Shown here piece after piece: positions 21,391 through 53,600 of a DNA stretch of 64,000 bases. Each line of letters opens with the position of its first letter. The first letter of the stretch is position 1. Made by a program: the position numbers and the translations under genes. The notes under the pieces are model-generated. The model did no database searches. It saw only the letters and a program-made list of their open reading frames with translations, and had not been told where the DNA came from. This stretch comes from Balanoglossus misakiensis (Eukaryota > Animalia > Hemichordata): contig CM082592.2 of the NCBI GenBank assembly GCA_040954595.2, positions 1,798,001-1,862,000 on the forward strand. Reading direction: 5' to 3'.

Positions 21391-22330
21391 ATAATAACAT
21401 ATTTGTGGTATAAGATAATATAGCTAAATTGAGCTATGATTTAATTCCATTATAATTTTAAAGAAGAACATATCATTAACTTGCAACTAAAATTTTAAAT
21501 TTATCAGTCATGCACATTCTGATAAAAAGTTAGTTTTTTTATCAACATTCGAAAACATGCCCCAAAAATACAATATTTTCAGCAGACTTTTCATATATAT
21601 CACAGTAAGAATTCCCCTTGAAACTGCAAACAAAGTTGAAAAGCAATCACAGAAAAATGGCAAAATTTGCCAACAAAAAAAATATTGACACTTCCATCAA
21701 AGGGTTTTCTAAATATTCTTGAAAACACACCTAGGAACCTGGAAACCAAATTTCAAAAAAAAATATGGGTAAAGGTTTCCGAGTATTTGGCCAAAAAGGC
21801 AAAAATCGCTCCAAAAATATACTTCAAAAAAATGAAAATAATCTGTATAAGGTCTCAATAAAATACAATGTACACACCAATTTCTAAAGCAATCTGACCA
21901 GCACCTTCTTATGTTTCTGAGTTTTGACCAAGTTCACATGGGTCCCAATGGTATACGAAATGGGACCCAAAGAGTAAAACACTTGTTAAAGATTTTACAA
22001 CTACAGGCTCACAAGATGCCAAATTTTAGAAGTCTTTTTACTTGGTAAAAAAATTCCCACTGAGCCATATTGCTTGTATATGCATGGCTTTGTCATCTCT
22101 TGCCGATGCATACCACAATAGTTGTATACCCTTCATATGGGGGTTGATTAAAACAGCGAGGAACTCGTTTAATATCTAACTTCTTTATATTGCAACATAC
22201 AGCCACATTCATTTGTCCATAACATTTTCATGTATATCTATCAGTTAAGCTTATTTAGATTGAGCAATCTAAGATCGAAAGTTAAATCATGAAAATAATG
22301 AAAGATTGGCAACTTTGAGTTTGAGTCTAA

Positions 22331-24879
22331 TAGTGGAGCGGCCAAACCCCGATTTTCATATGGATTGTGCATTTTGTGATAAAAGCACCAAACTTGGCTC
22401 AGATGTGTGTTACTGTGTACTAAGCAAATTCAGATAGCGAGCCACTTAATATCTGTTAACGGGTAGCCATGGCAACCATTTTTCAAAATGGCCGCCACTA
22501 CATTTATCTTACCCACAAAATAACGACTAAAAACACCAAGGTAATTTCAGAGTATGATATTTGGAACTAGAAACTATAGAAAGGGTGATTTGCAAAATAT
22601 TTGCGGTCACCAAAATGGTTATAAATACATAATGAAGGATAAAATACAGTTTAACGTCTACAGTGGAGCGGCATAACAGATCAATTGTGTATTTGTGTTA
22701 AATTAAAAGCACCAAACTTGGCTCAGATGTGCGTTAATGTGTACTAAACAAATTCAGATAGCGAGCCACAATATCTGTTGATGAGTTTCCATGGCAACCA
22801 TTTCTTCATTTTTTTCACAAATGGCCGTCAATACAGATAATCTCACCCACAAAATAACAATTATAAAACACCACAAAACTGCTCAAAGGGTAATTTTCAA
22901 AATATTAAACATCACTAAACTAGTTATATGGGTAAATACAGGATCGAGATTCAGTCGCTAGAGAAATTCAAGTTTGGTAATAACCGCGGTTACAACAAAC
23001 TTAGTTAAAACACTGTATAACCATAGATATATTATAATAGTGGCCTGGCATAAACAAAATTTTCATAACATTTGTGCATTTTGTGATAAAAGTTTAACAA
23101 GTAAAGCTCAGTTGATTTGTTATTTTCCCCATAAAAATATCTTTGACGAACAAAATTCCAAATTTAGTCAACCCAGGAAAAAACGGCATCTTGTTTCTCA
23201 ACCTTAGAAATTGATCTGACCAGTTTGAGTCAGTGCAGAATCTGGCTTTTCTATTTTATCTTCATCAAATGATTCATGCAAATAAAGAATCACTTCCCCA
23301 TAAAATGATGGCAGAAAGTCAATATCAGGACAGTCGATTGGTTTGTTAAAGTTTCTATAGAAACTAACTATGTCTAGGTTGCATGTACATAGATAGATGT
23401 TAGGAATCAAAATCAAAATCTGTTTCAAACTATGTAAGTGCTTTGTCGCTTAAGTGCTCAAGTTATCGAAAATTTTAATCGAACCTTGATGATAGTCATC
23501 AGTTCTATTTTGACATGTTATTTTGTGTATTTTTGAACCCCAAAATCAAAGAATAAAATGATAAAGTGTAATTAAGCTTCAAAACACAAAAAGTCTTCAG
23601 GATCACAACTTTACTGTAAAGAGTAAGATTTCGCTTACTTCATGCTATTAAATGAAATGAAGTTTTCCGTAATATCTCTTGCAAAGTCGGATCTTTACAC
23701 ATTGAGATATTAGAATGGAAGTACATTCCAAGTGACTTGTTGTGAGCATCGGGCCACCTAATCCCAGAAAATTGCAATAAGACCCGCTTTTCCATTTACC
23801 AATCTAAAGGCCAACTGCTTGTATATTTAGTTGGGTTTCTTTAATTAACACACATTTTTGACAATATTCATGGCATGATGAACACTATTCTCGACAAATA
23901 AAATAATGTTGTGTCCTCCGGTGTAATTTTTATTAGTTTGGAATCAGACACCATTTATCTTTTGGTCAACTCTGTTAACAGTCGCCAAAATTGCTGGAGT
24001 CGAACTGATACATGATCTAAAGTATCAAGACATATGGTCGATTATTAACGTTTCAGCAGTTCGACTTAAGTTTCTTTAATTTCCTATGGCATTTTGACAA
24101 ACATCAATGCCCCGAAAAAAGTTTTCAACGCTGTGGTCGCTATTGTGGTCTAAACAAAGCCGACATTTTCGCATGGTTCGTTACCCGGGGTCCATTTAGA
24201 TTGCATTGCGTTTGAGGCCCTATGTGTATGTCTGTCGACCAATAAACGCGACGGCCGCGGACTCAGTTTGGATCAACGTCTATTTGGGCAGTGGACTCTC
24301 CTATCAAGTTGATAAGGAAATTTTACCAGTCACGAGTAAGCCAAGCCCACATCCGTGTGCAATTCGAATATATCGGTGATCTGTTTATGATTATCATTAG
24401 CTAAGGTGGTAAACTGTTGTGATTCATATGTGTAATTTACGTACTTCAAGTTAAATATCGCAATTAGCCTAATGTTTGACCATAGACAGTATGGTTTGAC
24501 TTCTAGAGGAGCACCTATTAATCCGAGAACAAAGGGATTAAAAGTTGCGCCTTTAAATTGTGTTTTGATAACTTACCTACCCCTATAAGTAGTTTAGTAA
24601 CCATAATATCTTTGCAAATTATTCTTCCCGCAGTTCCTTGTATCAAATACAGTAGTCCACATTTATTTCGGTGTTTACAGATGTTATTTGGTGGGTGAAA
24701 TTATCTGTATTGGCGGCCATTTTGAAAAAAATGGTTGCCATGGAAACTCATCAACAGATATTTAGTGGCTCGCTATCTGAATTTGTTTAGTACACATTAA
24801 CACACATCTGAGCCAAGTTTGGTGCTTTTATCACAAAATGCACAATCCATATGAAAATCGGGGTTTGGCCGCTCCACTA
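22331..24879. mobile_element. Non-autonomous DNA transposon with ~190-bp TIRs and 3-bp TAA TSD (Academ-like); arm 1 only
   Basis: tagtggagcggccaaacccc...ggggtttggccgctccacta flanked by TAA. Arm 2 has the empty site at ~51,660. An extra TIR copy lies at ~22,660-22,850. Family call is tentative. Confidence 0.8.
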
Positions 24880-25136
24880 TAAAGATATAATGATGACATT
24901 AAGGTTTTATTGAAATAACATGAGAACCTCTCTACTATTTGAAGCACTTAAGTTTAAAATGAAACACTTCCTTCTTCCCCTCAAACTTTTTTTCAAGAAT
25001 ATGTTCTACTCTGGGACAACAATTCTCGACCCCTTTACCAAATGTCAGGGACCAGATTTCTGTAAGCAAAATTACAAATGACTTTGCGGTGACTTTTTAC
25101 CTACACTCCCATATTGGGTAGTATGAAACACCGAAT

Positions 25137-30300: not shown

Positions 30301-30969
30301 AACATAAGTATGAACAAAGCTGTAATTTATGCAAATGTAACCGAGCTTTATTTAGACACACTTACGCAGTGAGCATGGCCTGGGCACTGTGGAAGGGGTC
30401 TGGTAGGGTTCACCAATGCGCGCGTATTGGCTGCTCCTAATTTACATATCAATCACTGAGTCAGTAGTTCAATGAACTTTATAGTCTCACATGCATTTTT
30501 AGATCACGTAACCCTGCTAGTGCGTTGACGGCCAATTATATCTTCGATAATATAAAATTTAAAAACGGCACACAAAGACACACAACTTTGTTTTTTCTTC
30601 AAATCTGTCTTTCTAAATTCATGCTAACCCGGTGGACCCAGACCAGCTGTTTTCATGCTGGACCAGTAATTTGATAAAGAAGCAGACCCAATGTCCTGCT
30701 GTTAATAGAGAGGGGGGTGGCAATTTTTAAGTTTCTGACCCTATACTGCTAAATTCTCAAATAATCAAAGCCCAAAATTTAGATAAAATGAAAACTGAAC
30801 AGATCGATCAGCAAAATCAACTTGGCGAAAGCCTTTAAAGCTAAGCATCTCTGGCGACTTGCGAGAGTGGTGGCGCTAGTCTACATCCCCATATGTTATG
30901 CATTGGTGGTAGATTCGAGATCTCGTTTATTCAAAATGGATTCCTTGTTTTGATGGGCTTTATGCGTGA

Positions 30970-31370
30970 GTCAAACATGTACAGATATTTAAATATTGAG
31001 GCACCAGCAGCGAAAAAGAAGCGATCAACAGAATATCGCTGTGCTGCAAACAAAGTCTTCGATGCACAGAAATGGGAAAGGAAGTTTCAAGAGGCTTGGG
31101 AAAAAGATTTTCCATGGCTAATACACGATCCCGGTAAGCGTGATGAACACATCTCCAAAATGTTCTGCCAGTCTTGCAGTGTGTAGTGTGTACGTCCGCT
31201 GGTTGTTAACAAGCGACAGTCTGGAATTCTTGATAAGTACACAAAATATGCAGCAGGTCCTTTCGTAACTTGGTGTACCAACATGAAAAGGAGTTTTATC
31301 GAGCCATGCGTTATCTGAGGGGCACAAACAAGCCATTGCAAACATCGCTCATAGAACCGGTGGGCCGGCA
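30970..31370 (+). pseudogene. hAT/ZNF862-like N-terminal TTF-type zinc-finger remnant; mirrored at ~45,620-46,020
   Basis: RKFQEAWEKDFPWL..MFCQSC followed by a frameshifted GPFVT.CTNMK segment. Confidence 0.6.
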
Positions 31371-32069: not shown

Positions 32070-34934
32070 TTAAGCTCGAGGCCTGGATACGCGAAGTGGT
32101 TTTCAAGTTTTTGATGTGGACGGACATCAAACCATCCATCCAAACAGAAGCAACTGACTGGTTAGAAAGCATGAGCAAAAAATGGGGCAATCAAATGTTG
32201 TATCAAGACATTTGATATAACAGGAGTTTGATGATAATCATTCAGAGAAGCAAATTTTGAAAATGTAAAATTAATATCAATCACATGAAAACTGACAGCA
32301 TTCTTATATTTGGAAATTTAGGTATTGTAATTAACACTAACAGTCATGAAACTTTAGAATTGTCAATAAAATCATACAGCATAATTTAATTGGGTTTCTA
32401 TTTATATGCAATGTGAAAATGCAACTGGTGATCCTTCGACCAGTAAGAGGCATCAGATTAATTCGACAGACCCAGTTGCCCGGTCAATTAGGTCTTTGCA
32501 CTCATTCCAGCCGTGCCCCACACTAAAACTGAGCAGGTTGGACCAGTCACACCTCCCTTAAATAATCCTATTGTTCCCAATGTTTATCTCGTCAATATAT
32601 CTATTGCATGCTTTTAGCACCTTTTCTCAGGTTCTTGAAGCTGGTTGGTTAAAATTGGCTGTTCTGGCCATCTTGATAACCACCTTTGAAATAATTGGGT
32701 AGGTGACTTGGAAGGAAAGATTGTAATTAACATCTTATTGGCAGTTTCGCGAACACAACAGGACATTGCAAACTACAAGTTTTCGGTAGGTGGTAAAGTT
32801 GAGGCCCGTGATGACTGTAACTGGTGGGTAAAGGGTGCAGTTAAGGAAATAGTTGGAGCTGAAGGACTGCATTCTCATATTTGGAAATTTAGGTATTGTA
32901 ATTAACACTAACAGTCATGAAACTTTTGAATTGTCAATAAAATTACACTGCATAATTTAATTGGGTTTTTGTTTATATGCGATGTGAAAATGCAACTGGT
33001 GGTCCTTCAGCCGGTAAGAGGCATCAGATTAATTTGACAGACCTGGTTGCCCAGTTGATTAGGTCTTTGAATTGTGAGAAGTGCGGGTTTTGGTATCTGA
33101 ATCCGAGAAGCGCCTGTTTTGGTGACTAAATTCTCATTTACAGGATACGGAAGAAACCAGAATCACTCAAGGTACATTAATGATGTATGCAGGCTAACAA
33201 TCAGAATACAGAGGATAGTTCTCCATATTCATATTTAAATACAATAAGATTCACTGAAATTGGTAGGTCCGTGGGCAGGCAAAATCATTTCCAACTCGGC
33301 TTGCAAATCAGGCCCATGTCTCTTGTTCCCCCATACAGTCTGGTTCTAATAATAGCTGTAAGAACGTGATTGTTGACCGAACTGTTGGCTCAATTTTGCA
33401 ACATTTTATAATTTCAAGCTGTGTTTCAACTTTGGTTGGAGGAATAATGATGAAGCCATTTCACTGACACAATAGCGCTAAGAATGGACGTCAATATTTG
33501 TTTACAGTTAAATGCATTGCCATCAGAAAAATGCATCTGAAAAATTTCTTATGCAAACTCTCTCACAGTTGTGAATTCTAAGCACATTCATTCATTTGGT
33601 AGAATTCATGTTTTAAATGGTTACCTCAGAGTAACTGTAAAATTTGATCATCAAATACTTGAAATGACTCACAAATTATACGGCAAAACTTCATAAAGCA
33701 TAAATAATACTCACTGAAACGCCATGCAACCCAAGTTTGCAGGCCATCTCCACAGCATGATTGAATCCCAAGCACATACACAAATCATATCACATAATGT
33801 TGTAAGTTCCTTTCACTGAATACACACATGGAGGTTCGACTTCTGGGATATAACTGTCTTGAATTAATGTGTAAGTAATTCCATACAAATCCATACGATT
33901 ACCTGGATGAACACAAGTTAATTCAAAATAAATACATTAGAATAATGACCCGGACAGAATCAACAATGACCAACACATTTTTTTTTACAAAGTCGCATCA
34001 GCCCCGGCCGGGTGAAGAGTTCACATGAGAAATTAAATATTATTCCGATTATTTCTAATTCCGTCTTCAAACGCACGAAGGTACATATTTCCATTATTTA
34101 CTGTAGTCATAACTCTGTTTTCGCAACATTGATGCCGGCGTCTGTGGATATTTCTACAGTCAAAAACCATTACAGGATCGCGATTACACACATTAAACAT
34201 CGTGAACGCCTCCCGCCCGGGTCTGTTTCAAAGTCAAACCGCGTGCGGAGTAAATGTTGTTGATAAATGTTGTCGTTTTTTTGCGAAGACAATATTTAAA
34301 AGACCAGTTTTCTGAGAGGCACTTGCCAACTATTCTTAATACCTCGTACACACGGACACAATATTGTTAAAAATTACCCACCTTTGAATTTTTTGTAGCT
34401 GTACGTACATCGACCAAGCAAAATCCATCGCGTGAGTTCTAGAATCAAACCTCATGACGTCACACTGACCTTTGCCCATATATCCTCGTTCATAACGTAT
34501 ATTTATTTTGAGGAAGAAGTCGGCCGGCCAGCCGCAACTTTTATCAACTAATCAGGGCAGTTGTAAGGTTTTGATACAAATTACGTCTGTCAAGTGTTCA
34601 AATCGTTAAATAACCGGTCAAACTAAGTTGTCGAACGATGATATGCGTGCAGCACCGGACGTCGCTTGCATAAGCCAAAACTGGGATAGGCGTACAATTA
34701 TGGCGCTCAAATGGGGCCAAAATTCAAATCGCCATTTCACTCAACTCAAATCGAAATTTCACTCGACTCAAATCAGCATTTCGTGAGAGTCAACAACATT
34801 TCAGTCAACTCAAATCGCAATTTCACTCAAATCGCAATTGCCATTCTGTGATTTTGTAAAATAATTTCTTTCGTGCGTTTTGACAGGCGAAGTATTCTGT
34901 TTTGGGGATTACTTTCCGCAAATGGGTAGGGTTA

Positions 34935-35365: not shown

Positions 35366-35384
35366 GTTACAAGCAGTAATTATT

Positions 35385-37557
35385 TAAGCAATAACCCCCG
35401 CCGAAGGCGGGTATACACGAGATTTTGGTACAATTCGCGACATATAGCATGAGCCGATAGGCGAGTGCTATATGGAGCGAATTGTACCAAAATCGAGTGT
35501 ATACCCGACTTCGGCGGGGGTTATTGCTATTATATTATATCAAAATATGTGTCTATACCGTTGTAATCCGATTCTCCGGTTATTTTACGCCTGAAAAAGC
35601 AAGTCACAGCTTCGAGAAATACATCGTCAGAAATATTGGACCTGGGACCGAGCATATTTATACCTGTCACATCGCCAACACACAGCGTACCCGGCACACA
35701 CACTGCATGAATACAACCGTACAAAACACATTACACTGCATTGCATTGACAAATAACTTTATTTACATAGAGTTCAAAACGATAACTTGTCGAAAAATAG
35801 CAACACATGAACAAGAAATGGGGCAAGAGGTCAAATCAAAGCCCGTTATCAAACAAAGTATCAATTTAAAGCTAGAGTCAAGTACGTTGCGTTGCGGCGC
35901 ACCCTCGTCCACCGTACGCTACTTATCGTGAACAATTTGAACATTAACAGGACCAGAAAACGTACAATTTTGAAATAATCCAGAAGCAGCATGACTTGAT
36001 CTATGATTGAACGTTAGTTGCGTGTTGCTCGATTCAGAGAGAGCGGGACGCTGATACTGATCGTCGTTGCATCGGATGTCAGCCGTGGCCAAGGGTGTTG
36101 GAGCTTCAGGTCCGATGTCAACAATGGTGGAAATATTTGGCCTGGTATAACCCAAACTTTCAGAAAGGATATCTGACATACCTTTGCTCTGTGGAAGTGT
36201 TAACTTATTTGTGTACGAACGAACACTAGCTTCATTTTTGTGAGCAGTGAAGTACATTATGTGTCGCGTCTCGACTCCCGCCGAATCAAGCAGAGTGCAA
36301 GCAGTTGCCCTGATACAGTGGTTTGTATACATTTGACTCAAATTTGCTGCTTCGGATATTTCTTTCATCATAGATCCAAGTTTGTTTTCGCCGAGAGGTG
36401 AGTTGCAAAACCATATATTATCTGTGTATTCAATGTCAGACTTTGGTCGGTGGAATAAAGCTGACTGCTTCGGATTGAGCTTAGAGAGATACAGTTCAAA
36501 CGCGGCTACAGGGCAATTTACGCCACCGGTTGCATGCATTTTGGCCTGTGTCTCGTAGTTGTCGTCGGAGTGATTTTTGGTTTTCTCCGATATCGCGAAC
36601 TCTACAAATTTCGTGTCACCACGTTCTACAACTCTGTAGCTTTCCCTCTTCATAGATCGGAAACCTTCGCGACCCCTCCTAGCAAAATGGAGGGTTAAAT
36701 CGAACCAAACTTTCCGCAACAACGACAGTGGGTTGTTGACGGAAAGGACGCCGCTACTCACTAGTTTTAACAAGTCCGCCCGCGTTATAGGTTGTTTGTG
36801 CTGTACCCTATCAAGGCCTTCTGATTTAAGCTGTTTTATAAGTGCCTTGAAGATGTTGTTTGCAGCTTTAAACTCTTGGTCGCGGATTATGTTTATATTC
36901 CGGTGGAAAGCTGGCGAGTTTAAATGCCGGTTGTTCGCTGCACGTAACCCGCTGAGGGCAGATTTGCCGTATCTCTCGCCGTGTTTGGTTCGTGCCTCGG
37001 CATAGAATCGACGTAGCATCGCCGCCAAATCTTCAGGTTGTTGTTTTTCAAATTCCGGGTCTAATCCCTTTTCTGCTAGCCATTCTGCAGAAAAAGATGG
37101 ACATAGAAATAATTATAGTGCAACATCCTTGTAATTTGGGATTTGTTTTAGCTTGGGGTATCGTCTGATATGCATACTCGTACACATAACGTACATAGCC
37201 TACTCACCTTTTAGTATTTTCACTCCCCAAACAGTCTGTTTTGTCGTCGCTTTCTCGTCTTTAAGAATTTCGATTTTGTCAAGCTCTTCCTCTCCAAAAC
37301 TTGCAAACCGGGACGGGATTTTTCTTTCCAATTCGGCAGTCTCATTTAAAAAATCGTCTTCCGTAAGCTCTTCCGTGTACGAAGCCATAGTTGTAGCAGA
37401 CGACAAAAAGTGACATCACTAGTCGCAGGGCATTCGTACTATGCTAGTTCAGGGGCCCGTTTTACCATTGCTAGCCATGGTAAAACAGTATTTTACCATG
37501 GCTGGAGTCAGCTCTCGTCCAATCAGAATCGCGGACGGTAGCATGATATAATATAAT
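35385..37557 (-). mobile_element. Autonomous Crypton-type tyrosine-recombinase element, copy 1
   Basis: YR gene bracketed by a 14-bp IR, attatattatatca (35529-35542) / tgatataatataat (37544-37557), plus a terminal hairpin at 35387-35528. No TSD and no RT. Confidence 0.88.
35919..37388 (-). CDS. Crypton-type tyrosine recombinase (DUF3504-like), 2 exons (37388-37208, 37084-35919), ~448 aa
   Basis: A 123-bp GT-AG intron joins the exons in frame. Catalytic set FARRGRE (R), EKTKN (K), TNHCIRAT (HxxR), HKNEASVRSY (H..Y). N-terminal LRRFYAEAR..G..Y..SAL..LRAA motif of Crypton/KCTD1-ZMYM type. Confidence 0.9.
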
Positions 37558-37670
37558 CGATATCAAATGACGTCAGACGCACTCAGGCCGGTTAGCCTAT
37601 TCAAGATTCATGTTTCAAGTTTCACGTTTCACGTTCCACGGCCCAAGATTCAGCGGTGAACTTGGATTCA

Positions 37671-38577: not shown

Positions 38578-39110
38578 GCAAACAGAGTTGAACATAAGCC
38601 AATTGTTACACAATTACAATGCGTCACAAATGTAAAACAAAAGAGTCTTTATCTGGTTTGGACCATTGAAATAGTCCCAATGGACTAATCGAGTCCACGA
38701 CCCAGGATTTAATAAATATTTAACAAATTTAATAAATTTAATAAATATAATTTTAAAGCTCCTTGAAAATTACATCTCGATTTTATTTGTTTGAGGTGAT
38801 ACGGTAGTGAATTCCAGTGTTTGACTGCAGAAAAGACAATGTTATGTTGAGTAATACTAAGTCTAGCATTCGGTATTCGAAGATTGCCACAACCAGACGA
38901 TCGAGTAGAATAGGTATGGGTAAAGATTTCAAAATAGTTGGAAATGTTTGTTGGGAAATTATTATTTAATGAATCAAAGATAAATAAACAGGAAGAGTAT
39001 TTACTGAGTTTCGGAAGAGTTAATATATTTAGTTGGCGGAATAAAGGTTCGGAGTGTGCAGTGAAGTCAGAAAACGTAATAAAAGATCGCACCATGGCCG
39101 GCAATCTCGG
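38487..39110 (-). mobile_element. L2/Crack-like LINE 3' fragment
   Basis: ORF 38709-39104: HSEPLFRQLNIL..HTYSTRS..KHWNSLP..FQGALKLYLL. 3' UTR with (TTTA)n, AATAAA and an (ATTC)n tail at ~38,490. Confidence 0.85.
38520..38577. repeat. (AAAT)n microsatellite
   Basis: Direct reading, ~14 units. Confidence 0.95.
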
Positions 39111-39425
39111 TATTCACAGATACTTTTAAGCGTAATTCTGATATAATTGATAGGTTTAGGGTCCGGGTATATTTTACAACCGATAACTAAAGCAAAAGGA
39201 CTAATTCCTATATTCTGAATCAAGTGAATGCAATGTAGACGGCGAAAGGACGTGACAAGACTCGAATCTGAATCAGAATATAAGTTTAGTGTTGGAAGTG
39301 AATCGTGAATCCAAGTTCACCGCTGAATCTTGGGCCGTGGAACGTGAAACGTGAATCTTGAAACTTGAAACGTGAATCTTGAATAGGCTAACCGGCCTGA
39401 GCGCGTCTGACGTCATTTGATATCG

Positions 39426-41603
39426 ATTATATTATATCATGCTACCATGCTACCGTACGCGATTCTGATTGGACGAGAGCTGACACCAGCCATGGTAAAA
39501 TACTGTTTTACCATGGCTAGCAATGGTAAAACGGGCCCCTGAACTAGCATAGTACGAATGCCCTGCGACTAGTCATGTCACTTTTTGTCGTCTGCTACAA
39601 CTATGGCTTCGTACACGGAAGAGCTTACGGAAGACGATTTTTTAAATGAGACTGCCGAATTGGAAAGAAAAATCCCGTCCCGGTTTGCAAGTTTTGGAGA
39701 GGAAGAGCTTGACAAAATCGAAATTCTTAAAGACGAGAAAGCGACGACAAAACAGAGAGTTTGGGGAGTGAAAATACTAAAAGGTGAGTAGGCTATGTAC
39801 GTTATGTGTACGAGTATGCATATCAGACGATACCCCAAGCTAAAAAAAATCCCAAATTACAAGGATGTTGCACTATAATTATTTCTATGTCCATCTTTTT
39901 CTGCAGAACGGCTAGCAGAAAAGGGATTAGACCCGGAATTTGAAAAACAACAACCTGAAGATTTGGCGGCGATGCTACGTCGATTCTATGCCGAGGCACG
40001 AACCAAACACGGCGAGAGATACGGCAAATCTGCCCTCAGCGGGTTACGTGCAGCGATCAACCGGCATTTAAACTCGCCAGCTTTCCACCGAAATATAAAC
40101 ATAATCCGTGACCAAGAGTTTAAAGCTGCAAACAACATCTTCAAGGCACTTATAAAACAGCTTAAATCAGAAGGCCTTGATAGGGTACAGCACAAACAAC
40201 CTATAACGCGGGCGGACTTGTTAAAACTAGTGAGTAGCGGCGTCCTTTCCGTCAACAACCCACTGTCGTTGTTGCGGAAAGTTTGGTTCGATTTAACCCT
40301 CCATTTTGCTAGGAGGGGTCGCGAAGGTTTCCGATCTATGAAGAGGGAAAGCTACAGAGTTGTAGAACGTGGTGACACGAAATTTGTAGAGTTCTCGATA
40401 TCGGAGAAAACCAAAAATCACTCCGACGACAACTACGAGACACAGGCCAAAATGCATGCAACCGGTGGCGTAAATTGCCCTGTAGCCGCGTTTGAACTGT
40501 ATCTCTCTAAGCTCAATCCGAAGCAGTCAGCTTTATTCCACCGACCAAAGTCTGACATTGAATACACAGATAATATATGGTTTTGCAACTCACCTCTCGG
40601 CGAAAACAAACTTGGATCTATGATGAAAGAAATATCCGAAGCAGCAAATTTGAGTCAAATGTATACAAACCACTGTATCAGGGCAACTTGCACTCTGCTT
40701 GATTCGGCGGGAGTCGAGACGCGACACATAATGTACTTCACTGCTCACAAAAATGAAGCTAGTGTTCGTTCGTACACAAATAAGTTAACACTTCCACAGA
40801 GCAAAGGTATGTCAGATATCCTTTCTGAAAGTTTGGGTTATACCAGGCCAAATATTTCCACCATTGTTGACATCGGACCTGAAGCTCCAACACCCTTTGC
40901 CACGGCTGACATCCGATGCAACGACGATCAGTATCAGCGTCCCGCTCTCTCTGAATCGAGCAACACGCAACTAACGTTCAATCATAGATCAAGTCATGCT
41001 GCTTCTGGATTATTTCAAAATTGTACGTTTTCTGGTCCTGTTAATGTTCAAATTGTTCACGATAAGTAGCGTACGGTGGACGAGGGTGCGCCGCAACGCA
41101 ACGTACTTGACTCTAGCTTTAAATTGATACTTTGTTTGATAACGGGCTTTGATTTGACCTCTTGCCCCATTTCTTGTTCATGTGTTGCTATTTTTCGACA
41201 AGTTATCGTTTTGAACTCTATGTAAATAAAGTTATTTGTCAATGCAATGCAGTGTAATGTGTTTTGTACGGTTGTATTCATGCAGTGTGTGTGCCGGGTA
41301 CGCTGTGTGTTGGCGATGTGACAGGTATAAATATGCTCGGTCCCAGGTCCAATATTTCTGACGATGTATTTCTCGAAGCTGTGACTTGCTTTTTCAGGCG
41401 TAAAATAACCGGAGAATCGGATTACAACGGTATAGACACATATTTTGATATAATATAATAGCAATAACCCCCGCCGAAGTCGGGTATACACTCGATTTTG
41501 GTACAATTCGCTCCATATAGCACTCGCCTATCGGCTCATGCTATATGTCGCGAATTGTACCAAAATCTCGTGTATACCCGCCTTCGGCGGGGGTTATTGC
41601 TTA
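39426..41603 (+). mobile_element. Autonomous Crypton-type tyrosine-recombinase element, copy 2
   Basis: Mirror of 35385-37557; terminal hairpin at 41460-41601. Confidence 0.88.
39603..41069 (+). CDS. Crypton-type tyrosine recombinase, 2 exons (39603-39783, 39907-41069), ~447 aa
   Basis: Intron 39784-39906 (gtgagt..ctgcag), same catalytic motifs as copy 1. Differs by a few substitutions and a one-codon deletion (RATAC to RATC). Confidence 0.9.
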
Positions 41604-44600
41604 AATAATTACTGCTTGTAACCAATCCGTGGTACATTTCGGCCAACCAATAAACCGATTTGCAACTTCAAAAAAGGAAATAGAAAAAATGCTAAATGTC
41701 AATTCTTCATCTTGATTATTAAATTTTAGGCCTATTTTCTAACTACATATTCTTCGTCTGAGATTGACAAATGGGAAATTGGTATATACTGCTGTGAGGA
41801 TGGCACTTTGCGGCCATTCAAATTTCCCTCCGACGAACGTCATTTCCAACAATGCACTATTTCCGTTTTCCCAATTTTCAATTTACCAAATATCTCTTTA
41901 TCCTAATGAAAGGGGGGGGGGGGCTGAAAATAGGCCTAAAATGTAATAATCAAGATGAAGAAACAATTTGAAAATTGACATTTAGCATTTTTTTCAATTT
42001 CCTTTTTTGAAGTTGCAAATCGGTTTATTGGTTGGCCGAAATGTGCCACGGATTGTAACCCTACCCATTTGCGGAAAGTAATCCCCAAAACAGAATACTT
42101 CGCCTGTCAAAACGCACGAAAGAAATTATTTTACAAAATCACAGAATGGCAATTGCGATTTGAGTGAAATTGCGATTTGAGTTGACTGAAATGTTGTTGA
42201 CTCTCACGAAATGCTGATTTGAGTCGAGTGAAATTTCGATTTGAGTTGAGTGAAATGGCGATTTGAATTTTGGCCCCATTTGAGCGCCATAATTGTACGC
42301 CTATCCCAGTTTTGGCTTATGCAAGCGACGTCCGGTGCTGCACGCATATCATCGTTCGACAACTTAGTTTGACCGGTTATTTAACGATTTGAACACTTGA
42401 CAGACGTAATTTGTATCAAAACCTTACAACTGCCCTGATTAGTTGATAAAAGTTGCGGCTGGCCGGCCGACTTCTTCCTCAAAATAAATATACGTTATGA
42501 ACGAGGATATATGGGCAAAGGTCAGTGTGACGTCATGAGGTTTGATTCTAGAACTCACGCGATGGATTTTGCTTGGTCGATGTACGTACAGCTACAAAAA
42601 TTTCAAAGGTGGGTAATTTTTAACAATATTGTGACCGTGTGTACGAGGTATTAAGAATAGTTGGCAAGTGCCTCTCAGAAAACTGGTCTTTTAAATATTG
42701 TCTTCGCAAAAAAACGACAACATTTATCAACAACATTTACTCCGCACGCGGTTTGACTTTGAAACAGACCCGGGCGGGAGGCGTTCACGATGTTTAATGT
42801 GTGTAATCGCGATCCTGTAATGGTTTTTGACTGTAGAAATATCCACAGACGCCGGCATCAATGTTGCGAAAACAGAGTTATGACTACAGTAAATAATGGA
42901 AATATGTACCTTCGTGCGTTTGAAGACGGAATTAGAAATAATCGGAATAATATTTAATTTCTCATGTGAACTCTTCACCCGGCCGGGGCTGATGCGACTT
43001 TGTAAAAAAAATGTGTTGGTCATTGTTGATTCTGTCATTATTCTAATGTATTTATTTTGAATTAACTTGTGTTCATCCAGGTAATCGTATGGATTTGTAT
43101 GGAATTACTTACACAATAATTCAAGACAGTTATATCCCAGAAGTCGAACCTCCATGTGTGTATTCAGTGAAAGGAACTTACAACATTATGTGATATGATT
43201 TGTGTATGTGCTTGGGATTCAATCATGCTGTGGAGATGGCCTGCAAACTTGGGTTGCATGGCGTTTCAGTGAGTATTATTTATGCTTTATGAAGTTTTGC
43301 CGTATAATTTGTGAGTCATTTCAAGTATTTGATGATCAAATTTTACAGTTACTCTGAGGTAACCATTTAAAACATGAATTCTACCAAATGAATGAATGTG
43401 CTTAGAATTCACAACTGTGAGAGAGTTTGCATAAGAAATTTTTCAGATGCATTTTTCTGATGGCAATGCATTTAACTGTAAACAAATATTGACGTCCATT
43501 CTTAGCGCTATTGTGTCAGTGAAATGGCTTCATCATTATTCCTCCAACCAAAGTTGAAACACAGCTTGAAATTATAAAATGTTGCAAAATTGAGCCAACA
43601 GTTCGGTCAACAATCACGTTCTTACAGCTATTATTAGAACCAGACTGTATGGGGGAACAAGAGACATGGGCCTGATTTGCAAGCCGAGTTGGAAATGATT
43701 TTGCCTGCCCACGGACCTACCAATTTCAGTGAATCTTATTGTATTTAAATATGAATATGGAGAACTATCCTCTGTATTCTGATTGTTAGCCTGCATACAT
43801 CATTAATGTACCTTGAGTGATTCTGGTTTCTTCCGTATCCTGTAAATGAGAATTTAGTCACCAAAACAGGCGCTTCTCGGATTCAGATACCAAAACCCGC
43901 ACTTCTCACAATTCAAAGACCTAATCAACTGGGCAACCAGGTCTGTCAAATTAATCTGATGCCTCTTACCGGCTGAAGGACCACCAGTTGCATTTTCACA
44001 TCGCATATAAACAAAAACCCAATTAAATTATGCAGTATAATTTTATTGACAATTCAAAAGTTTCATGACTGTTAGTGTTAATTACAATACCTAAATTTCC
44101 AAATATGAGAATGCAGTCCTTCAGCTCCAACTATTTCCTTAACTGCACCCTTTACCCACCAGTTACAGTCATCACGGGCCTCAACTTTACCACCTACCGA
44201 AAACTTGTAGTTTGCAATGTCCTGTTGTGTTCGCGAAACTGCCAATAAGATGTTAATTACAATCTTTCCTTCCAAGTCACCTACCCAATTATTTCAAAGG
44301 TGGTTATCAAGATGGCCAGAACAGCCAATTTTAACCAACCAGCTTCAAGAACCTGAGAAAAGGTGCTAAAAGCATGCAATAGATATATTGACGAGATAAA
44401 CATTGGGAACAATAGGATTATTTAAGGGAGGTGTGACTGGTCCAACCTGCTCAGTTTTAGTGTGGGGCACGGCTGGAATGACTGCAAAGACCTAATTGAC
44501 CGGGCAACTGGGTCTGTCGAATTAATCTGATGCCTCTTACTGGTCGAAGGATCACCAGTTGCATTTTCACATTGCATATAAATAGAAACCCAATTAAATT

Positions 44601-47600
44601 ATGCTGTATGATTTTATTGACAATTCTAAAGTTTCATGACTGTTAGTGTTAATTACAATACCTAAATTTCCAAATATAAGAATGCTGTCAGTTTTCATGT
44701 GATTGATATTAATTTTACATTTTCAAAATTTGCTTCTCTGAATGATTATCATCAAACTCCTGTTATATCAAATGTCTTGATACAACATTTGATTGCCCCA
44801 TTTTTTGCTCATGCTTTCTAACCAGTCAGTTGCTTCTGTTTGGATGGATGGTTTGATGTCCGTCCACATCAAAAACTTGAAAACCACTTCGCGTATCCAG
44901 GCCTCGAGCTTAAAGGCACGTAAGCTGCAACTGGATAAAAAATTAAAGTTTTAAATAATCTCATATATGCTTTTAATTATGTCTATTAAATGATATTTCA
45001 TGATAATATATCAATTTTTGAAGCTCAACTCTTTTTTATGACAAAATGGCCAAAAATTAAAGAAAAACGAAAATTCCTGCAATTTTAAAAAAAGTGCAAT
45101 ATTGCAATGAAAAATGAAAATCTGATGTCTCAGTGGTGTACATTTACTTCCATGAGCTCAAGTGGATGAGATCATGTTTTGTTTATGAAGTTACACAACC
45201 GGAAATGCAACATTTTCATTGTTTCTTGCATTTTCCCACGGTGGCGGCCATAATCGCTTGCGGCAAAGCTTTATTATTTATCTGGTTAAAACTTGCATAT
45301 GCACTCATATTTAGGGTTTATAATGCTCGTGTATAGTTCACTGCCTTCATCTGTATGGACTAATGGTAGTGCAATTTGAAACAAAAATTATGAAAATTAT
45401 CCCAAAAGTTACAGCTTACGTGCCTTTAAAGGTATACGGTCACCTATGGAAATTTAGCTACAGTTACCATTTGTAAACTTGAGATCTAGCCAATCGCTGA
45501 TTTTCACTGGATGGCACACGCGAAAAAAAGAGCGCCATCATATGTTCTTTGGAACGCTCAAATACGCCATTTCAGCCAAATATGGGCGTATGTAAATGGG
45601 AGGTGACTGTATACCTTTAATGCCGGCCCACCGGTTCTATGAGCGATGTTTGCAATGGCTTGTTTGTGCCCCTCAGATAACGCATGGCTCGATAAAACTC
45701 CTTTTCATGTTGGTACACCAAGTTACGAAAGGACCTGCTGCATATTTTGTGTACTTATCAAGAATTCCAGACTGTCGCTTGTTAACAACCAGCGGACGTA
45801 CACACTACACACTGCAAGACTGGCAGAACATTTTGGAGATGTGTTCATCACGCTTACCGGGATCGTGTATTAGCCATGGAAAATCTTTTTCCCAAGCCTC
45901 TTGAAACTTCCTTTCCCATTTCTGTGCATCGAAGACTTTGTTTGCAGCACAGCGATCTTCTGTTGATCGCTTCTTTTTCGCTGCTGGTGCCTCAATATTT
46001 AAATATATGTACATGTTTGACTCACGCATAAAGCCCATCAAAACAAGGAATCCATTTTGAATAAACGAGATCTCGAATCTACCACCAATGCATAACATAT
46101 GGGGATGTAGACTAGCGCCACCACTCTCGCAAGTCGCCAGAGATGCTTAGCTTTAATGGCTTTCGCCAAGTTGATTTTGCTGATCGATCTGTTCAGTTTT
46201 CATTTTATCTAAATTTTGGGCTTTGATTATTTGAGAATTTAGCAGTATAGGGTCAGAAACTTAAAAATTGCCACCCCCCCTCTCTATTAACAGCAGGACA
46301 TTGGGTCTGCTTCTTTATCAAATTAAGTGGGAAAGGAAAGACAATGACACTGTCAGGAGTCTACTACCTCCATGATGAACCAGAGAGCAATGACTATTTT
46401 AATTTATTTCAAATACTATGTTTACAACTGCTGTGCTCCCATTAACTGGGGAAAGTATATGATTGAACTGTCTGTTTGAATAATTCATGTATTTCGCTAT
46501 GTGACCCGGATTTTGTGATTTTCTGATAGATTGATACAAAGACAGTTCTTTGCTTACTGATAATTTATTGAAAGTGCTGCTCTTCCAATGACTGTCCAGT
46601 ACGTATTTGCATAATGTGAACCTTGACCAGGTGTACAGGGCCCTCATGAAGCAAAGAGATACAACCCTTCTCTTTGCTAAACTTGGCTGCTATGAGTAGG
46701 TTTGTAACTTTTTGTTAAAAGTGTTCAATCGTTGACATCCACTTCTATTATTGAGATGAAATGATGTATTAGTGTCTCAAGAACAGTCAACTGTAATAAT
46801 TTGGAAGAATGTTTCATGTTTTTGTGAGTTTTTCAAGCTTTTATTCAGAGTTGATGAAAGTACAAATACAATGAACAGTTGCATGTGTTACAGTGTACTG
46901 CCATGGTCAAACAATACTTGGACATTCAGTTATTGTTATCGCCTGTTGGAAATATGTGGATATTGGACTCCAACAGTATTTCATGTGCTGTAGTATTTTC
47001 TGCTATGTATGCTTTGTACATATTTTTTGGTTTTGTGAATTAGTATTTTAATGCTCATTTCTCCCTTTGCTAACTTGGCACCTACAATACTATAGTCAGT
47101 ACATAACAGGATATACTTCAAAAGGGAAAACTTTTCATCAAAACATTTCAGCTGATCCTGAATGCTGATATTTGTTTTAAAAATGAATTTATCTCATAAC
47201 TTCTACTGGTGCACCATTTTTTTTCTTTTAAAATGCATCTCTCATACATTGCACTGGTGTGATTTGATATAAATACACAATGAATTCCATCACCATTTAA
47301 TATAGCAGTATAACACAGGATACTAAATCTGAGATGTTTTAGGATGTTTTGAACTAATCAGTAACCATTTTCTAAAACTTATAGATCTGAAACTGAAATT
47401 CTGAATTTGGTCAGCCCTGGGAAATATATTGTGTGAGGCCATTTTTAATTCCAAAAATTAAAACGGTTTAATATTAGAGCCCTTGGTAGAAGGTTACATA
47501 GTACCACACATGTAAATGACGTTCTGCACTGAAAAAAAAGTGAACTTGGCATGGGTAGGTAAAAAAAATGGGCAAAAAAAAGTTTGAGGCCTAGTATCAC

Positions 47601-50600
47601 CTGAATATTTGGTGGGTAGGTGCAGGCCGGTCTGTATACGGTTCAAATGAAGTTACCTGGTAAAATGTTAAATTGATCAAAATTCAGAAACTCAACAACT
47701 GGTCAGATTACTTTAAACATTTGTATGCATGTAGCTTATGTCATGCCCGATATACTTTGAGCTAATATCGTGAATTGTGGCAACTTTTCATTTGGGGGCA
47801 ATTTTTGCCATTTTATGGGATCGGTTGCGTCTGTATGTATGGGTGGATGGATGTATGTCTGTATGTCCGTCCACATCAAAAACTTGAAAACCGCTGCGTG
47901 TATCACATTGATATTTGATGTGCAGATGCAGGCTGGGCTGTAGATGGGAGTTTGATCAAATCAAGTTGTCATTGCCGAAAATATGCTAATTAGCTGGAAA
48001 CATGAATTGGTCAAAACTCAGTAACTAAAGAACTACTGGTCAGATTGCTTTGCAAAGTGGTGTGTATTTACTTGATTGAGTTGTTTTAATTAGGCAGGAA
48101 GCCCCCTCAGTGTGATTTATGTATACACAGCAAATTCCTGAATGATTACAAAACTGGGTAAGTTTATAAAGAGGCCAGCTGTTCTATTTAGTGTATGTAT
48201 GTAGTACATATGCCATTGGCAGCTCTTTGGTCAGTCAGTGCTTGCCCATTGATCTCTCGTTATATGTGTGTGTGTGTGTGTCTGTCTGTCTGTATTTGGC
48301 CATGTACTCCGGTGTAGACTTTTTCTTGTGTAATACCTCAATGGGACCACTGTGTCCTTGACACGATTTTTGGCCAAAAATCATTTTCTCTGAGACTCCT
48401 TGCTAGATTGCTTTTAAAGTTTGGTATTCTTGTTCCAAGTGGTAAAGTGGTAACCCTCGTAATGTTGCATCATTTTGGTGAAATTTGTACATTTGTGGTC
48501 TTGAGGCAATTTTTGGAATTTATATTCTGTGAAACCTCTTGTCAGATTGCTTCCAACTTTGGTTGGCATGTTCCTGGTGGTGATTGAAGTAAGATATTGT
48601 ACAATTTGTTGATATTGAATTTTTGTGGTTTGAGGCAGTTTTTGTCATTGTTGAACACATATTATTTTTGCTGAAAATACTTGTCAGATTCCTTTGAAAT
48701 TTTATTACAGTAGGTCATATCTGCTTGCCAATGTCAGTTGTGATTTTTTTTTCGTGTACACAACTAATTTTGTGTAATCCCCAGATGGGTCCACAGTGTG
48801 TTATAACCTGACCAATATTTACTGGTAAATCCTGTATGTTCTACTTCTGGCAACTTTGAAATATGTTGATGTTTGGGTTAAATGGGATTCTTCACAAACA
48901 TACAATACAGAGTGTGTGGTACAGTCCATGGTCACATTCAGAACTACCTAGTCTATATCTGTATGATTTGCTTCCAAAACTAACACCTAGAGTCATGCAT
49001 ACCATTGGCCAAATAAACTGGAACCCCTAGCTGGGAATAGTGATGTAAGTAGTGTCCCTTTGAAGTCAATCGCATAAACTGAACAGTGTTGATTAAAGTG
49101 TAAGATAAAAAAAATAGATTATAGTGAAGGCAAGGCTTATATCATTGAAAATGCTACAAGCCTTAAGGTGGCATTGCATGAAACCGTCGAGACTTTTTCA
49201 GAGGCCTATTTCTCATCAAAGACAACGTTAAAACCCCCATAAACCATATATATTCTGGAAGCCGAGTTTTTGAACTTTTGTTTGCATTGCAAATATTATT
49301 GATCCCTGGAAATGGTGGCGATTTTGGGTTAAAAAAACCCATTTTTTGATATTATGTCATAAAATTTAAAATAGGTAAAAAAGTTGACCATGCATCATGC
49401 ATCTTTATATGTCATTCGAAACTTGAGTACACGTGCAAAACAACGGTAATTTTGTTTTGCGTTATCTGCTTCCATTGAGGAGTAACAGCGTTTGAAAGTT
49501 AGATTTTTAGTAAAATTTGATCAAATTCACGGTGAGTTGTATTGAATCAGAGTTTATTCCCGCCAGAGACAATTTATCGACTAACAAAAATACCGTTTTG
49601 TTGGCTGGGTCATACACAATCCCCAGTTAAAATTTGAGCAAATTCGGCCAAGGCAGAGCGAAGCTATTTTCGTCTGAAGTTGTCAAGAACAGCGAAAATG
49701 CAAACTGAGAAAAACGGCCATTTGCATTGTTGACACCTATTTGTTAAGCTGTGAACTCATTCAGAAAAGTGCTATTTTGGGGTGATTATGCACCATTTCC
49801 GCCAAGACGTATTAGTCAGGATGTGGGTCAGTATTAGGCATACCGATTTATGTAAAAAAGTAAAATTTGGCAAAAATCACAACTATTCATGCAATGCCAC
49901 CTTAATTACACATATGTATATATCCTTTGTGTAATCCATACCGTACCATAGACTTGCATAGTACTTTGATGGTGAATCACAAATGGCCACTTTCATTACA
50001 CTACCTCAATCAGTCAATTAGCTGTAATAAGACAAACATTCCCAGTGTAATTTACATCACTGTTGTTATTAGTATCTATCGCCAATCAGTATCAATTATG
50101 CCTTTATGTTATTTTAAGTCAATTGTCAAGGTTCATGTACATATCTTACAACTTAACTATCTTGTCAAAAACTTCCGCATGTATATGTACAATGTACCTA
50201 ATTCTAGGCTCACCAGTAGGGTTAGAGATAAAGTGTTTTATATTAACATGCATTAATATGAAACTAGAATTTGATGGTTAATTTAGGACTCCCTTGATCT
50301 ATGGTGACCTCATAAATATGTGCATATCTAATTCTAGGCTATCCATTGGAGGTAGAAACCTGGACATGGCAAACTTTGGGGTCAAAATCTTTTGACAAAC
50401 TCCTGGGTAATCTTGGGTAAACTTTGCCCTACATTCCTATATTTTGGGATCCGGAGCAGATACATCCGTGACACTTGGACTGATGGAAATATGTAATGGA
50501 CTATTATGTCTTACTTCATTAATTTTGTGCACTCATGCCAGGCTAACCAAAATGGCTGAAAGTCTGGCTTTTGTTTGACATAATGAATTTGAGATCAGCA

Positions 50601-53600
50601 TTTTCCTACAGCAGCCATGCTTCACTTAGAAAAGAATGGAAAATATAAAGGCTTAAATGGTAGGCTGAACTTTTTACTTCCCTTCCCTGAGACTGTGTGC
50701 CAATGACGGGATAGCCTACTCAGCGTTGGGTAGATCCTAAGAAGGCCTCAGCCAGGTTTCAAATAAAAAGAAAGCGGAAATAGCTTGAATGGTGGGTTAC
50801 ATCGTTAACTTCCCTGCAGAGCTGATTTCTCAGACTGTGAGCCAATGACGGGTAAAGCCTCTAGGTAGGGGCCACCTAAGACAGGCCAGTCATGCTTTAA
50901 TTACAAAGAAGGGCAAGTTCAGTCTTACCACAACTTTGTCTGCTGTATATGCTTCATAAAGAATGCATAGTATTTTGAGAACACATTGTGTGACCATGTA
51001 AAAAGTACTGGCAAACATAGCCATAGTGGTATGAAAAAACATCTAATGTGGCTTAATAAAAGACATATAAAACACAGCAAAAGCACTGTGACTAAAAGAG
51101 ACATAATACTCCATTACATAGTTGCATCACTCCAAATGTCAAGGATGTATCAGCTTTGGATGCCAAGATATAGGAATGTATGTCAAAGTTTACCCAGATC
51201 ACCCAAAATTTTGTCATCAAATTTGGACCCCAAAATTGTCCCCGTTTAGGGATCTACCTCAACTGGATAGCTTAGAATTATATATGCACATATTTAATGA
51301 TGTTACCATAGATCAAGGCAGTCCTAAATTAACCATCAAATTCTAGTTTCATGTTAATTCATGTTAATATGAAACACTGTATCTCTAACCCTTCTGGTAA
51401 GCCATTCGGTGTTTCATACTACCCAATATGGGAGTGTAGGTAAAAAGTCACCGCAAAGTCATTTGTAATTTTGCTTACAGAAATCTGGTCCCTGACATTT
51501 GGTAAAGGGGTCGAGAATTGTTGTCCCAGAGTAGAACATATTCTTGAAAAAAAGTTTGAGGGGAAGAAGGAAGTGTTTCATTTTAAACTTAAGTGCTTCA
51601 AATAGTAGAGAGGTTCTCATGTTATTTCAATAAAACCTTAATGTCATCATTATATCTTTAGACTCAAACTCAAAGTTGCCAATCTTTCATTATTTTCATG
51701 ATTTAACTTTCGATCTTAGATTGCTCAATCTAAATAAGCTTAACTGATAGATATACATGAACATGTTATGGACAAATGAATGTGGCTGTATGTTGCAATA
51801 TAAAGAAGTTAGATATTAAACGAGTTCCTCGCTGTTTTAATCAACCCCCATATGAAGGGTATACAACTATTGTGGTATGCATCGGCAAGAGATGACAAAG
51901 CCATGCATATACAAGCAATATGGCTCAGTGGGAATTTTTTTACCAAGAAAAAAAGACTTCTAAAATTTGGCATCTTGTGAGCCTGTAGTTGTAAAATCTT
52001 TAAAAAGTGTTTTACTCTTTGGGTCCCATTTCGTATACCATTGGGACCCATGTGAAATTGTTCAAAACTCAGAAACATAAGAAGGTGCTGGTCAGATTGC
52101 TTTAGAAATTGGTGTGTACATTGTATTTTATTGAGACCTTATACAGATTATTTTCATTTTTTGAAGTATATTTTTGGAGCGATTTTTGCCTTTTTGGCCA
52201 AATACTCGGAAACCTTTACCCGTATTTTTTTTTTAATTTGGTTTCCAGGTTCCTAGGTGTGTTTTCAAGAATATTTAGAAAACCCTTTGATGGAAGTGTC
52301 GATATTCTTTTTTGTTGGCAAATTTTGCCATTTTTCTGTGATTGCTTTTCAACTTTGTTTGCAGTTTCAAGGGGAATTCTTACTGTGATATATATGAAAA
52401 GTCTGCTGAAAATATTGTATTTTTGGGGCACGTTTTCGAAATTGAATGTTGATAAAAAAACTAACATTTTATCAGAATGTGCATGACTGATAAATTTAAA
52501 ATTTTAGTTGTAAGTTAATGATATGTTCTTCTTTAAAATTATAATGGAATTAAATCATAGCTCAATTTAGCTATATTATCTTATACCACAAATATGTTAT
52601 TATGGGTTAGGTTAGGTTCTGGGCAGGTACTGAACGCAGTCTTGTGAGCCTCTATATTCAGCTCCACTTCAGTCCATCCTTGGAGTAGTTTTGTCGGATC
52701 TGGTTTGCATGACGTAGGGTTCGGAGTAGTTGTATTTCATGGGCTGTTTTGCCAAAATTTTGTCAAGACGATTCTTGAAAGAGTTCACAGAGTTTGCGGT
52801 GACAACATGGTCTGGTAGATTGTTCCAAATTGCAGCTATCCTATTTGTGAAAAAAAAAAATCTTCTAGTGTTCATTTTGCAGTGTCCTATGTCAACTTTA
52901 AACGGATGACCTCTGGTGTGTTTGTGTGAACTGAGACTGAATAGTCCTTCTCATACACGGCAGTCATATACACCACTCAAGATTTTAAAAGTTTCAATGA
53001 GGTCACCACGTAGTCTTCAATATGTCAGAGATGGCAGATCAAGTAACTTGAGACGTTCTTCATAAGAAAGATTTTTGAGTCCAGGCAGTAGTTTGGTTGC
53101 TCTGCGTGAACGTTCTCAATACAGTCACAAGTCAATGTCCTATGCTTTATGTTACACACAACCGCCATATTCCAGAATAGGGCGAACTAAAGCTATAAAT
53201 AGTAGCTTGAAAATGTCGTTATTGAGATAGTTGAAAGTTCTCCTGATGAGTCCAACAATTTTATTGGCTATGTTCACTTGGGTTTGGATGCGCTTCTCAA
53301 AATTTGACGCCAATGTTTTTTTCATACTTGACAACTTCTAAAGTGGTATTTGTTCCATGTGGACGGCACATAGTGGAAAGGAGTAGTATTTGTTGACTTA
53401 TTTTTGCTGTGAATTGGTAAACTTTGCACTTGTCAGGGTGAAATTTGAGCAGCCAATCGTTGCTCCATTGGGATAGATGATTTAGGTCACTCTGGAGAAA
53501 TAACCCTTACATTGTTCTTTGCAATTAAGTAGGAACCCCCCACTGAAAATTGTATGTACACGTTGACTTCTCTATGTCTGTATACATGTCTATGTGTATG

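Follow-up and report, generated by a model that had tools for sequence, protein, structure and literature searches.

We analyzed a window of 64,000 nucleotides of the hemichordate Balanoglossus misakiensis (assembly GCA_040954595.2, contig CM082592.2, positions 1,798,001 to 1,862,000); all positions below without a locus name refer to this window. It contains an autonomous Crypton element whose tyrosine recombinase gene lies on the − strand and whose right end carries a long hairpin. The element and its parts are as follows.

35384 to 37556, − (sense) strand: whole autonomous Crypton element, 2,173 bp, delimited by contig loose ends and the junction table
37557 to 37567, − strand: left flank, target half-site plus 6-nt target spacer, the sole exception at position −8 (see below)
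37544 to 37556, − strand: left end, complementary to 35530 to 35542
37519 to 37526, − strand: CTGATTGG (CCAAT-type) box, retained within the left end in many relatives
37208 to 37388, − strand: recombinase exon 1, 60 codons, predicted
37085 to 37207, − strand: predicted GT-AG intron, still present in the genomic copy
35919 to 37084, − strand: recombinase exon 2, 388 codons, with QRICH1, DUF3504 and phage-integrase matches and with R, K, H-x-x-R, H and Y present
35521 to 35542, + strand: internal complement of the predicted circle junction (two cores with a 5-nt spacer between them, followed by the asymmetric inverted repeat at 35529 to 35542)
35384 to 35394, + strand: right end, a 7-nt spacer followed by a WTA half-site, the putative recombinase core, at the hairpin base
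35380 to 35383, − strand: right flank, target WTA half-site

Contigs from two runs of one sample have loose ends at 35381/35384 and 37557. Splicing of the recombinase was predicted from GT/AG signals. The protein matched Pfam PF12012 (DUF3504; E 4e-13) and also PF00589, its catalytic residues (R-H-R-Y, also K) are intact, and its closest named protein, from the acorn worm Ptychodera flava, is 69% identical. An AlphaFold model of the recombinase of a twin copy in the window (pLDDT 90) had QRICH1, Cre and Tn1549 integrase as best fold matches, with integron integrase low among them (rank 45, TM 0.35). The ORF list and a Pfam scan of the main exon gave a single gene and no RT, DDE or GCR1_C domain, and no HUH gene was found inside 35384–37556 (ORF list, Pfam). 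Relatives were absent from viral contigs and from the bacterial and archaeal genomes searched; seven DNA matches in bacterial genome bins (L081–L087) look like animal host repeat DNA. The CTGATTGG box is presumably a promoter or host-factor site. Between this box and the start codon, the left end also contains a 31-nt palindrome (37473–37503), which shares its high contig depth.

Judged from its protein, its single gene and its lack of terminal inverted repeats and of target duplication, the element files as CryptonA-type, a label that does not separate CryptonA from CryptonV, as our tree was built without Repbase reference elements. It shares with CryptonA (PMC3212892; fungal Glomhoppers, PMC13465315) one tyrosine recombinase gene with R-H-R-Y and without GCR1_C, the lack of a terminal inverted repeat (its two termini have no mutual complementarity) and many non-autonomous derivatives. 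Kojima and Jurka (2011) described animal Cryptons as lacking detectable terminal repeats (PMC3212892); short direct repeats at both ends are known for CryptonF and CryptonS and were not found for CryptonA. What sets the present element apart from those descriptions is its strand-specific hairpin, together with an asymmetric inverted repeat and the target TAW-N6-WTA.

The hairpin has the following geometry.

35387 to 35528, + (antisense) strand: terminal hairpin, 142 nt with 71-nt arms, GA/GA loops and GATA cap
35419–35420/35495–35496, 35439–35440/35475–35476 and 35451–35452/35463–35464, + strand: three tandem GA/GA loops
35455 to 35460, + strand: C-GATA-G cap

It begins 3 nt inward of the right end of the element and about 390 nt beyond the recombinase stop codon. 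The stem also holds a single G.A on the + strand (35407/35508) and a G.T pair (35450/35465). The initial annotation had described a 142-nt palindrome with three GA/GA loops, one single G.A and a GATA cap, on the strand antisense to the gene, with TC/TC loops on the sense strand; the coordinates, the fold and the position of the gene on the − strand agree with it, except that the loops said to be evenly spaced are 20 and 12 bp apart. With DNA parameters, the + strand folds at −72.3 kcal/mol (z −19; 0 of 200 shuffles were equally stable) and the − strand, with its TC/TC loops, at −67.7 kcal/mol. Within the 5' arm, 35397–35411 can alternatively fold by itself into a side hairpin (6-bp stem, GAA triloop), possibly a folding intermediate; majority copies in the host retain a GNA there. 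Further short palindromes lacking a GA apex occur at 55556–55650 and 59114–59152.

We investigated whether related loci carry such a hairpin. Relatives were the best 80 of 310 loci from a scan with a 31-protein alignment, making 81 loci with the window. Among these 81, 18 have a downstream hairpin, 50 have less than 1,300 nt of downstream sequence, and 13 are longer and lack a hairpin. The hairpin-bearing loci are scattered over a quick tree (no outgroup, no reference elements). In three of the 13 hairpin-less loci (L007, L021 and L064), as well as in L030, similarity to a hairpin-bearing sibling breaks off at the hairpin or shortly ahead of it; nine or more short contigs terminate within the inner arm of the hairpin. 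Truncation thus accounts for only 3 of the 13, and the other 10 long loci lack an explanation. Two members of one recombinase clade have a shorter, GA-less hairpin 1.4–1.5 kb downstream (L024:3689-3762 and L025:2737-2808), which could represent an alternative design of the end or belong to a neighbor.

For comparison of structure, we used the 17 loci with a fold of −40 kcal/mol or lower within 1,300 nt downstream and removed three near-duplicates (L012, L038, L043) and a branched fold (L062), leaving 13 hairpins in 11 groups. The stems of the 11 groups are 38–59% alike, compared with a median of 41% and a 95th percentile of 51% for shuffles. On the antisense strand, the 2×2 loops are GA/GA in 25 of 29 cases, GC/AA in four and TC/TC in none, and 40 of 50 GA steps have the context Y-GA-R. 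Both Y-GA-R and GC/AA are sheared DNA motifs. GA/GA is kept on one strand in 12 of the 13 hairpins, L022 having none. As for the caps, the drawn folds have eight C-GNA-G triloops and two C-GNNA-G, both of DNA type, and no GNRA, and L049 and L056 have C-GAA-G in sequence, yet were drawn with larger loops. A d(GNA) loop closed by C:G is unusually stable in DNA (PMC3201870). When both strands were folded, the nearest-neighbor energy gaps between them were small, about 1–5 kcal/mol, and RNA parameters also favored the antisense strand in 11 of 13 hairpins; L022 (no GA loop) and the branched L062 favor the sense strand.

Covariation of the stems against invariance of the GA positions was a check proposed by the initial annotation. 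Across four related hairpins, in an alignment with one row shifted by 4 nt at the ends, 16 of 48 pairs showed two-sided changes and a single pair a one-sided change, and the GA loops stayed constant. In addition, the majority copies in the host have paired double changes at 35404/35511 and 35426/35489, a C-G in place of the G.T, and GTTA or GTCA as cap; the change at 35404/35511 can also be read as the side GNA mini-hairpin at 35397–35411. GA bases in host copies show just 1–4% G-to-A, and at no GA position is more than 4% of contig depth replaced; the majority changes fell on the 14 GA and cap-closing bases in 0 of 8 cases, a number too small alone for significance. Conversely, some hairpins have become symmetric, with GA/GA turned into perfect pairs (L084:1201-1305, L080:216-332 and window 12763–12841), which is evidence of palindrome self-correction or flip events. 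That the GA loops survive, though such correction would erase them, implies selection. Taken together, these comparisons indicate that the hairpin is a real, conserved cis-acting structure, common to unrelated families.

A second feature, absent from the initial annotation, concerns the far end of the element. Immediately inside the hairpin, 35529–35542 is the reverse complement of 37544–37557. We examined this asymmetric repeat at 16 loci, of which five had less than 500 nt upstream and 11 were testable against 44–49 decoys each. It scored above all decoys in 8 of the 11, as an exact match of 11–16 nt in seven and with two mismatches allowed in L049. L004 and L048 failed, as did L065 by the scoring rule, where a repeat of about 23 nt with mismatches was judged by eye. 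The sequence of the repeat varies between families. Because the far end is complementary to bases just inside the hairpin, the strand is predicted to take the shape of a dumbbell in which the two ends come together. The joined ends would read core–7 nt–core, and the internal complement core–5 nt–core.

Gene-less elements of the same build occur elsewhere in the window.

60853 to 61166, − strand: sister element, non-autonomous, 314 bp, same GA loops and cap, stems changed
12459 to 12898, + strand: non-autonomous element of another family, 440 bp, same layout, apex GA/GA now a perfect pair
59016 to 60485, + strand: gene-less element of a further family, ends approximate, GA/GA hairpin at 60381 to 60485 with a GCA triloop

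The asymmetric repeat is 23 nt with one G.T in the first and 11 nt in the third. Folded whole on the GA strand, the short elements form the dumbbell, in which a helix between the ends accompanies the hairpin and the two first bases stay unpaired at the joint. Summed contig depth in the two runs reached 53,601 and 185,514 at the hairpin and 71,370 and 206,732 at the left end, whereas the gene had 157–311 and 0–1,613; depth drops at 35543–35548, directly after the inner repeat, and contig joints bridge the ends, skipping the gene. These depths, which do not equal copy number, reveal that gene-less copies retaining the hairpin, the inner repeat and the left end are in large excess. Circle junctions and empty-site joints were not among the 15 listed of 23 joints, in contigs that prove presence, not absence.

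Insertion sites, likewise not covered by the initial annotation, give information on the strand of exchange. In L081, an element lies inside another's hairpin arm, and the empty site, taken from the partner arm and L084, indicates one crossover without duplication. Elements of this kind insert into each other's hairpins (L081:884-1190; L080:216-790), whose arms hold TAW-N6-WTA, and this may explain the nests they form. The 19 distinct left flanks were compared with 12,912 control sites. Of these flanks, 18 have A at −8 (P 1e-8), 18 have W at −7 (P 0.002) and 16 have A at −1 (P 5e-6); the preference for T at −9 and for A at −2 is weak (10 of 19, P 0.06). Among 21 right flanks, W, T and A occupy +1 to +3 in 21, 20 and 19. 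The preferences on both sides define the target TAW-N6-WTA, inverted cores around a 6-nt spacer, which is the usual layout for tyrosine recombinases (PMC4792948). Insertion into microsatellites, as known for some CryptonV families (PMC8869645), was not seen: the 8–11 nt flanks (19 left, 21 right) are varied and AT-rich with few short AT runs. All that both junctions share is a degenerate A|WTA(T). A requirement that the fourth target base match the element end was rejected, as it held at 2 of 2 sites in one family and at 1 of 7 in another.

Read in the direction of the gene, the crossover has a fixed place, the right-hand border of the spacer. Tyrosine recombinases cleave both strands at the respective 5' edge of the spacer; with this polarity, the right border would be cut on the antisense, GA-bearing strand. 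If both strands were exchanged between unlike spacers, the element spacer should appear at about half of the left junctions; it was seen at 0 of the 12 testable ones (2–4 of 6 bases match), or 2^−12, in a sample that is small and coral-heavy and that repair or selection could bias. Right junctions cannot serve for this count because they were located with motifs that contain element bases. The junctions, independently of the folds, point indirectly to exchange of the antisense strand alone.

The initial annotation had proposed that one strand is selected to fold and that the hairpin acts as the recombination substrate. Its first part gains comparative support from the antisense GA/GA loops, the GNA/GNNA caps, the two-sided stem changes and the junctions. 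As for its second part, the predicted site extends beyond the hairpin: the putative core is found at the base of the hairpin, and pairing of the far end with the 13–14 nt just inside the hairpin completes it. It is more likely that the GA loops, 30–65 nt from the core, set which strand folds than that they are themselves the site, and under the best model the recombination site would be the hairpin base.

We regard as probable a one-strand exchange on a folded single-stranded circle that replication completes, as for attC and CTX. Under this model, the antisense strand would become single-stranded, e.g., at a replication fork, where the cap and the sheared GA/GA pairs would drive its folding; the TC/TC strand would fold less, which would also restrict cruciform extrusion. 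The recombinase would then exchange the antisense strand at both ends, releasing a single-stranded circle while the other strand keeps the donor copy. In the circle, the end-to-end junction and the internal complement would form a double-stranded site with a 7-nt opposite a 5-nt spacer. This folded site would attack a double-stranded target in one exchange, with 1–2 nt of microhomology, and the uneven spacer would hinder a second. Replication would resolve the junction, and copies would multiply. A wider claim, that the recombinase reads the sheared G.A pairs and the 7/5 spacer as signals of strand and direction and that animal Cryptons are folded-single-strand transposons, stands in our estimate at an even balance; if true, it would be the first attC/CTX-like pathway in eukaryotes, with a design rule common to animal phyla.

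Other readings of the same data have to be weighed. The junctions suggest one-strand exchange and are silent on the form of the substrate, which leaves room for exchange on ordinary duplex sites; the hairpin and inner repeat would then serve to close a single-stranded circle or to prime its second strand. GNA hairpins also act as protein or priming signals. Partial precedents are the DIRS ICR, which can pair with both ends and is proposed to close a circle later made double-stranded (PMC7192593), and the Vibrio strand-biased circularizing elements (SEs), which circularize one strand via tyrosine recombinases (PMC9345347). Nevertheless, the internal complement repeats both cores with a conserved 5-nt spacer against the 7 nt of the junction, and a 7-nt duplex spacer suits a 6-nt target poorly, whereas 7 and 5 average 6; we consider this reading rather unlikely. 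Two exchanges on a double-stranded circle, with the hairpin as a cruciform or an accessory protein-binding site, is the published working model (PMC13565253; PMC3212892), and it agrees with the Cre- and Tn1549 Int-like fold of the enzyme and with a symmetric target around a 6-bp spacer. The mixed spacers it predicts at left junctions were seen in 0 of 12, it leaves the one-strand GA/GNA design and the inner complement without a reason, and it does not alone account for the great excess of short copies, which makes it improbable.

The structure could also act as RNA, in an antisense transcript, or its ends could be moved in trans by a Helitron2-type rolling-circle HUH enzyme. Tandem GA pairs are stable in RNA too, and RNA parameters favor the same strand (11 of 13); Eulor5A, a Crypton relic of human and mouse, was annotated as a pre-miRNA hairpin (PMC3495686; PMC5753468), and Helitron2 has a matching layout of asymmetric repeat and hairpin (PMC3627910). 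We hold both routes to be very improbable, as the caps are GNA/GNNA instead of GNRA, changes of the G-U type are rare, Rfam gave 0 matches at E 1, the intron is kept, RT and HUH genes are absent inside the element, and the symmetry of the target is of the recombinase type. Hardly credible, finally, is a neutral palindrome or an assembly artifact in which template switching keeps the stems matched. Self-correction does occur (the symmetrized L080, L084 and window 12763–12841) and the window contains a giant inverted duplication, but correction would erase GA/GA, which is found on one strand in 12 of 13 hairpins, independent reads support the hairpin, and conserved loop identity and strand contradict neutrality.

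The preferred reading, exchange of one strand on a folded circle, has parallels in several known systems. If it holds, the element shares with attC/IntI and CTXphi attP/XerCD a folded single strand recognized by structure over sequence, microhomology at the crossover, one exchange and replicative resolution (PMC4792948). Unlike in those systems, the enzyme is eukaryotic and self-encoded, the site consists of both ends plus an internal complement, and sheared GA pairs and GNA caps stand in place of single extrahelical bases; the recombinase also differs from the IntI clade, having no relatives in the bacterial genomes and viral contigs searched and matching the IntI fold only at rank 45 (TM 0.35). 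DIRS elements likewise encode a tyrosine recombinase and contain an internal sequence that can pair with their two outer ends placed next to each other, and they have an antisense single-stranded DNA intermediate, here proposed for the Crypton (PMC7192593); the Crypton lacks RT, Gag and RNase H, keeps its intron, and has its internal complement and right end united in a single hairpin. Helitron2/Helentron elements have an asymmetric terminal inverted repeat beside a 3' hairpin and make no target duplication (PMC3627910), in contrast to which the Crypton has no HUH nuclease/helicase, a hairpin of 110–190 nt with programmed GA loops, and a target of two-fold symmetry. The Vibrio elements resemble it in their tyrosine recombinase, 6-bp spacer, circularization of one strand and retention of the donor (PMC9345347), but are bacterial and site-specific with four genes, and the available part of that paper describes no folded hairpin site. 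The element resembles attC/IntI, CTXphi, DIRS and Helitron2 in parts and belongs to none.

The words "hairpin" and "palindrom" have 0 occurrences in the main texts of PMC3212892 and PMC13465315, and our literature search turned up no paper describing the structure; Repbase Reports, Dfam notes and subscription journals were outside its reach, and curators may have noted hairpins. A September 2026 review states that Crypton transposition lacks experimental demonstration and assumes a double-stranded circle (PMC13565253). Our results suggest that cutting of a folded single strand, a route known from bacteria and not for Cryptons, is likely here. With the ends mapped exactly, a consensus for the target, a prediction of where and on which strand the cut falls, and a minimal substrate of 300 nt, this mechanism is directly testable. 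The hairpin also offers a structural rule for locating and annotating Crypton ends, whose limits have been difficult to set. It may also be relevant to the origins of DNA binding in the domesticated DUF3504 genes (ZMYM, QRICH1, KCTD1) and to the human Eulor5/6 relics. A compact one-protein integrase that reads structure and makes no double-strand break could interest genome engineers.

The surroundings of the element include a second copy and a giant inverted duplication.

39427 to 41604, + strand: twin copy inside the giant inverted duplication, with an identical hairpin at 41460 to 41601

The duplication (about 17550–37670 / 39306–56467) has arms of about 19 kb with 99% identity and a 1.6-kb spacer, and is either a real fold-back event or an assembly artifact. 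Since the twin hairpin is part of it, that hairpin is not independent evidence. The twin recombinase has lost one codon beside the H-x-x-R motif. A role of the Crypton in causing the giant palindrome is unsupported: the inner boundary lies about 110 nt past the left end, in another repeat. This repeat is TTCAAG-rich and present as a short inverted pair. A MITE-like element with nested inverted repeats of 67 nt and 37 nt and raised contig depth (34935–35365) adjoins the right end of the Crypton, and upstream of it lies a tandem repeat of about 21 nt in 4–5 copies (34711–34833). The ORF fragments at 38709–39113 and 30845–31186, which had no Pfam match at E 0.1, presumably resemble the 3' part of a LINE and the zinc-finger start of a DNA transposase, which is our impression. 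The left arm of the duplication, and not the right, carries a 2.55-kb insert (22330–24880) with 154-nt terminal inverted repeats (95%).
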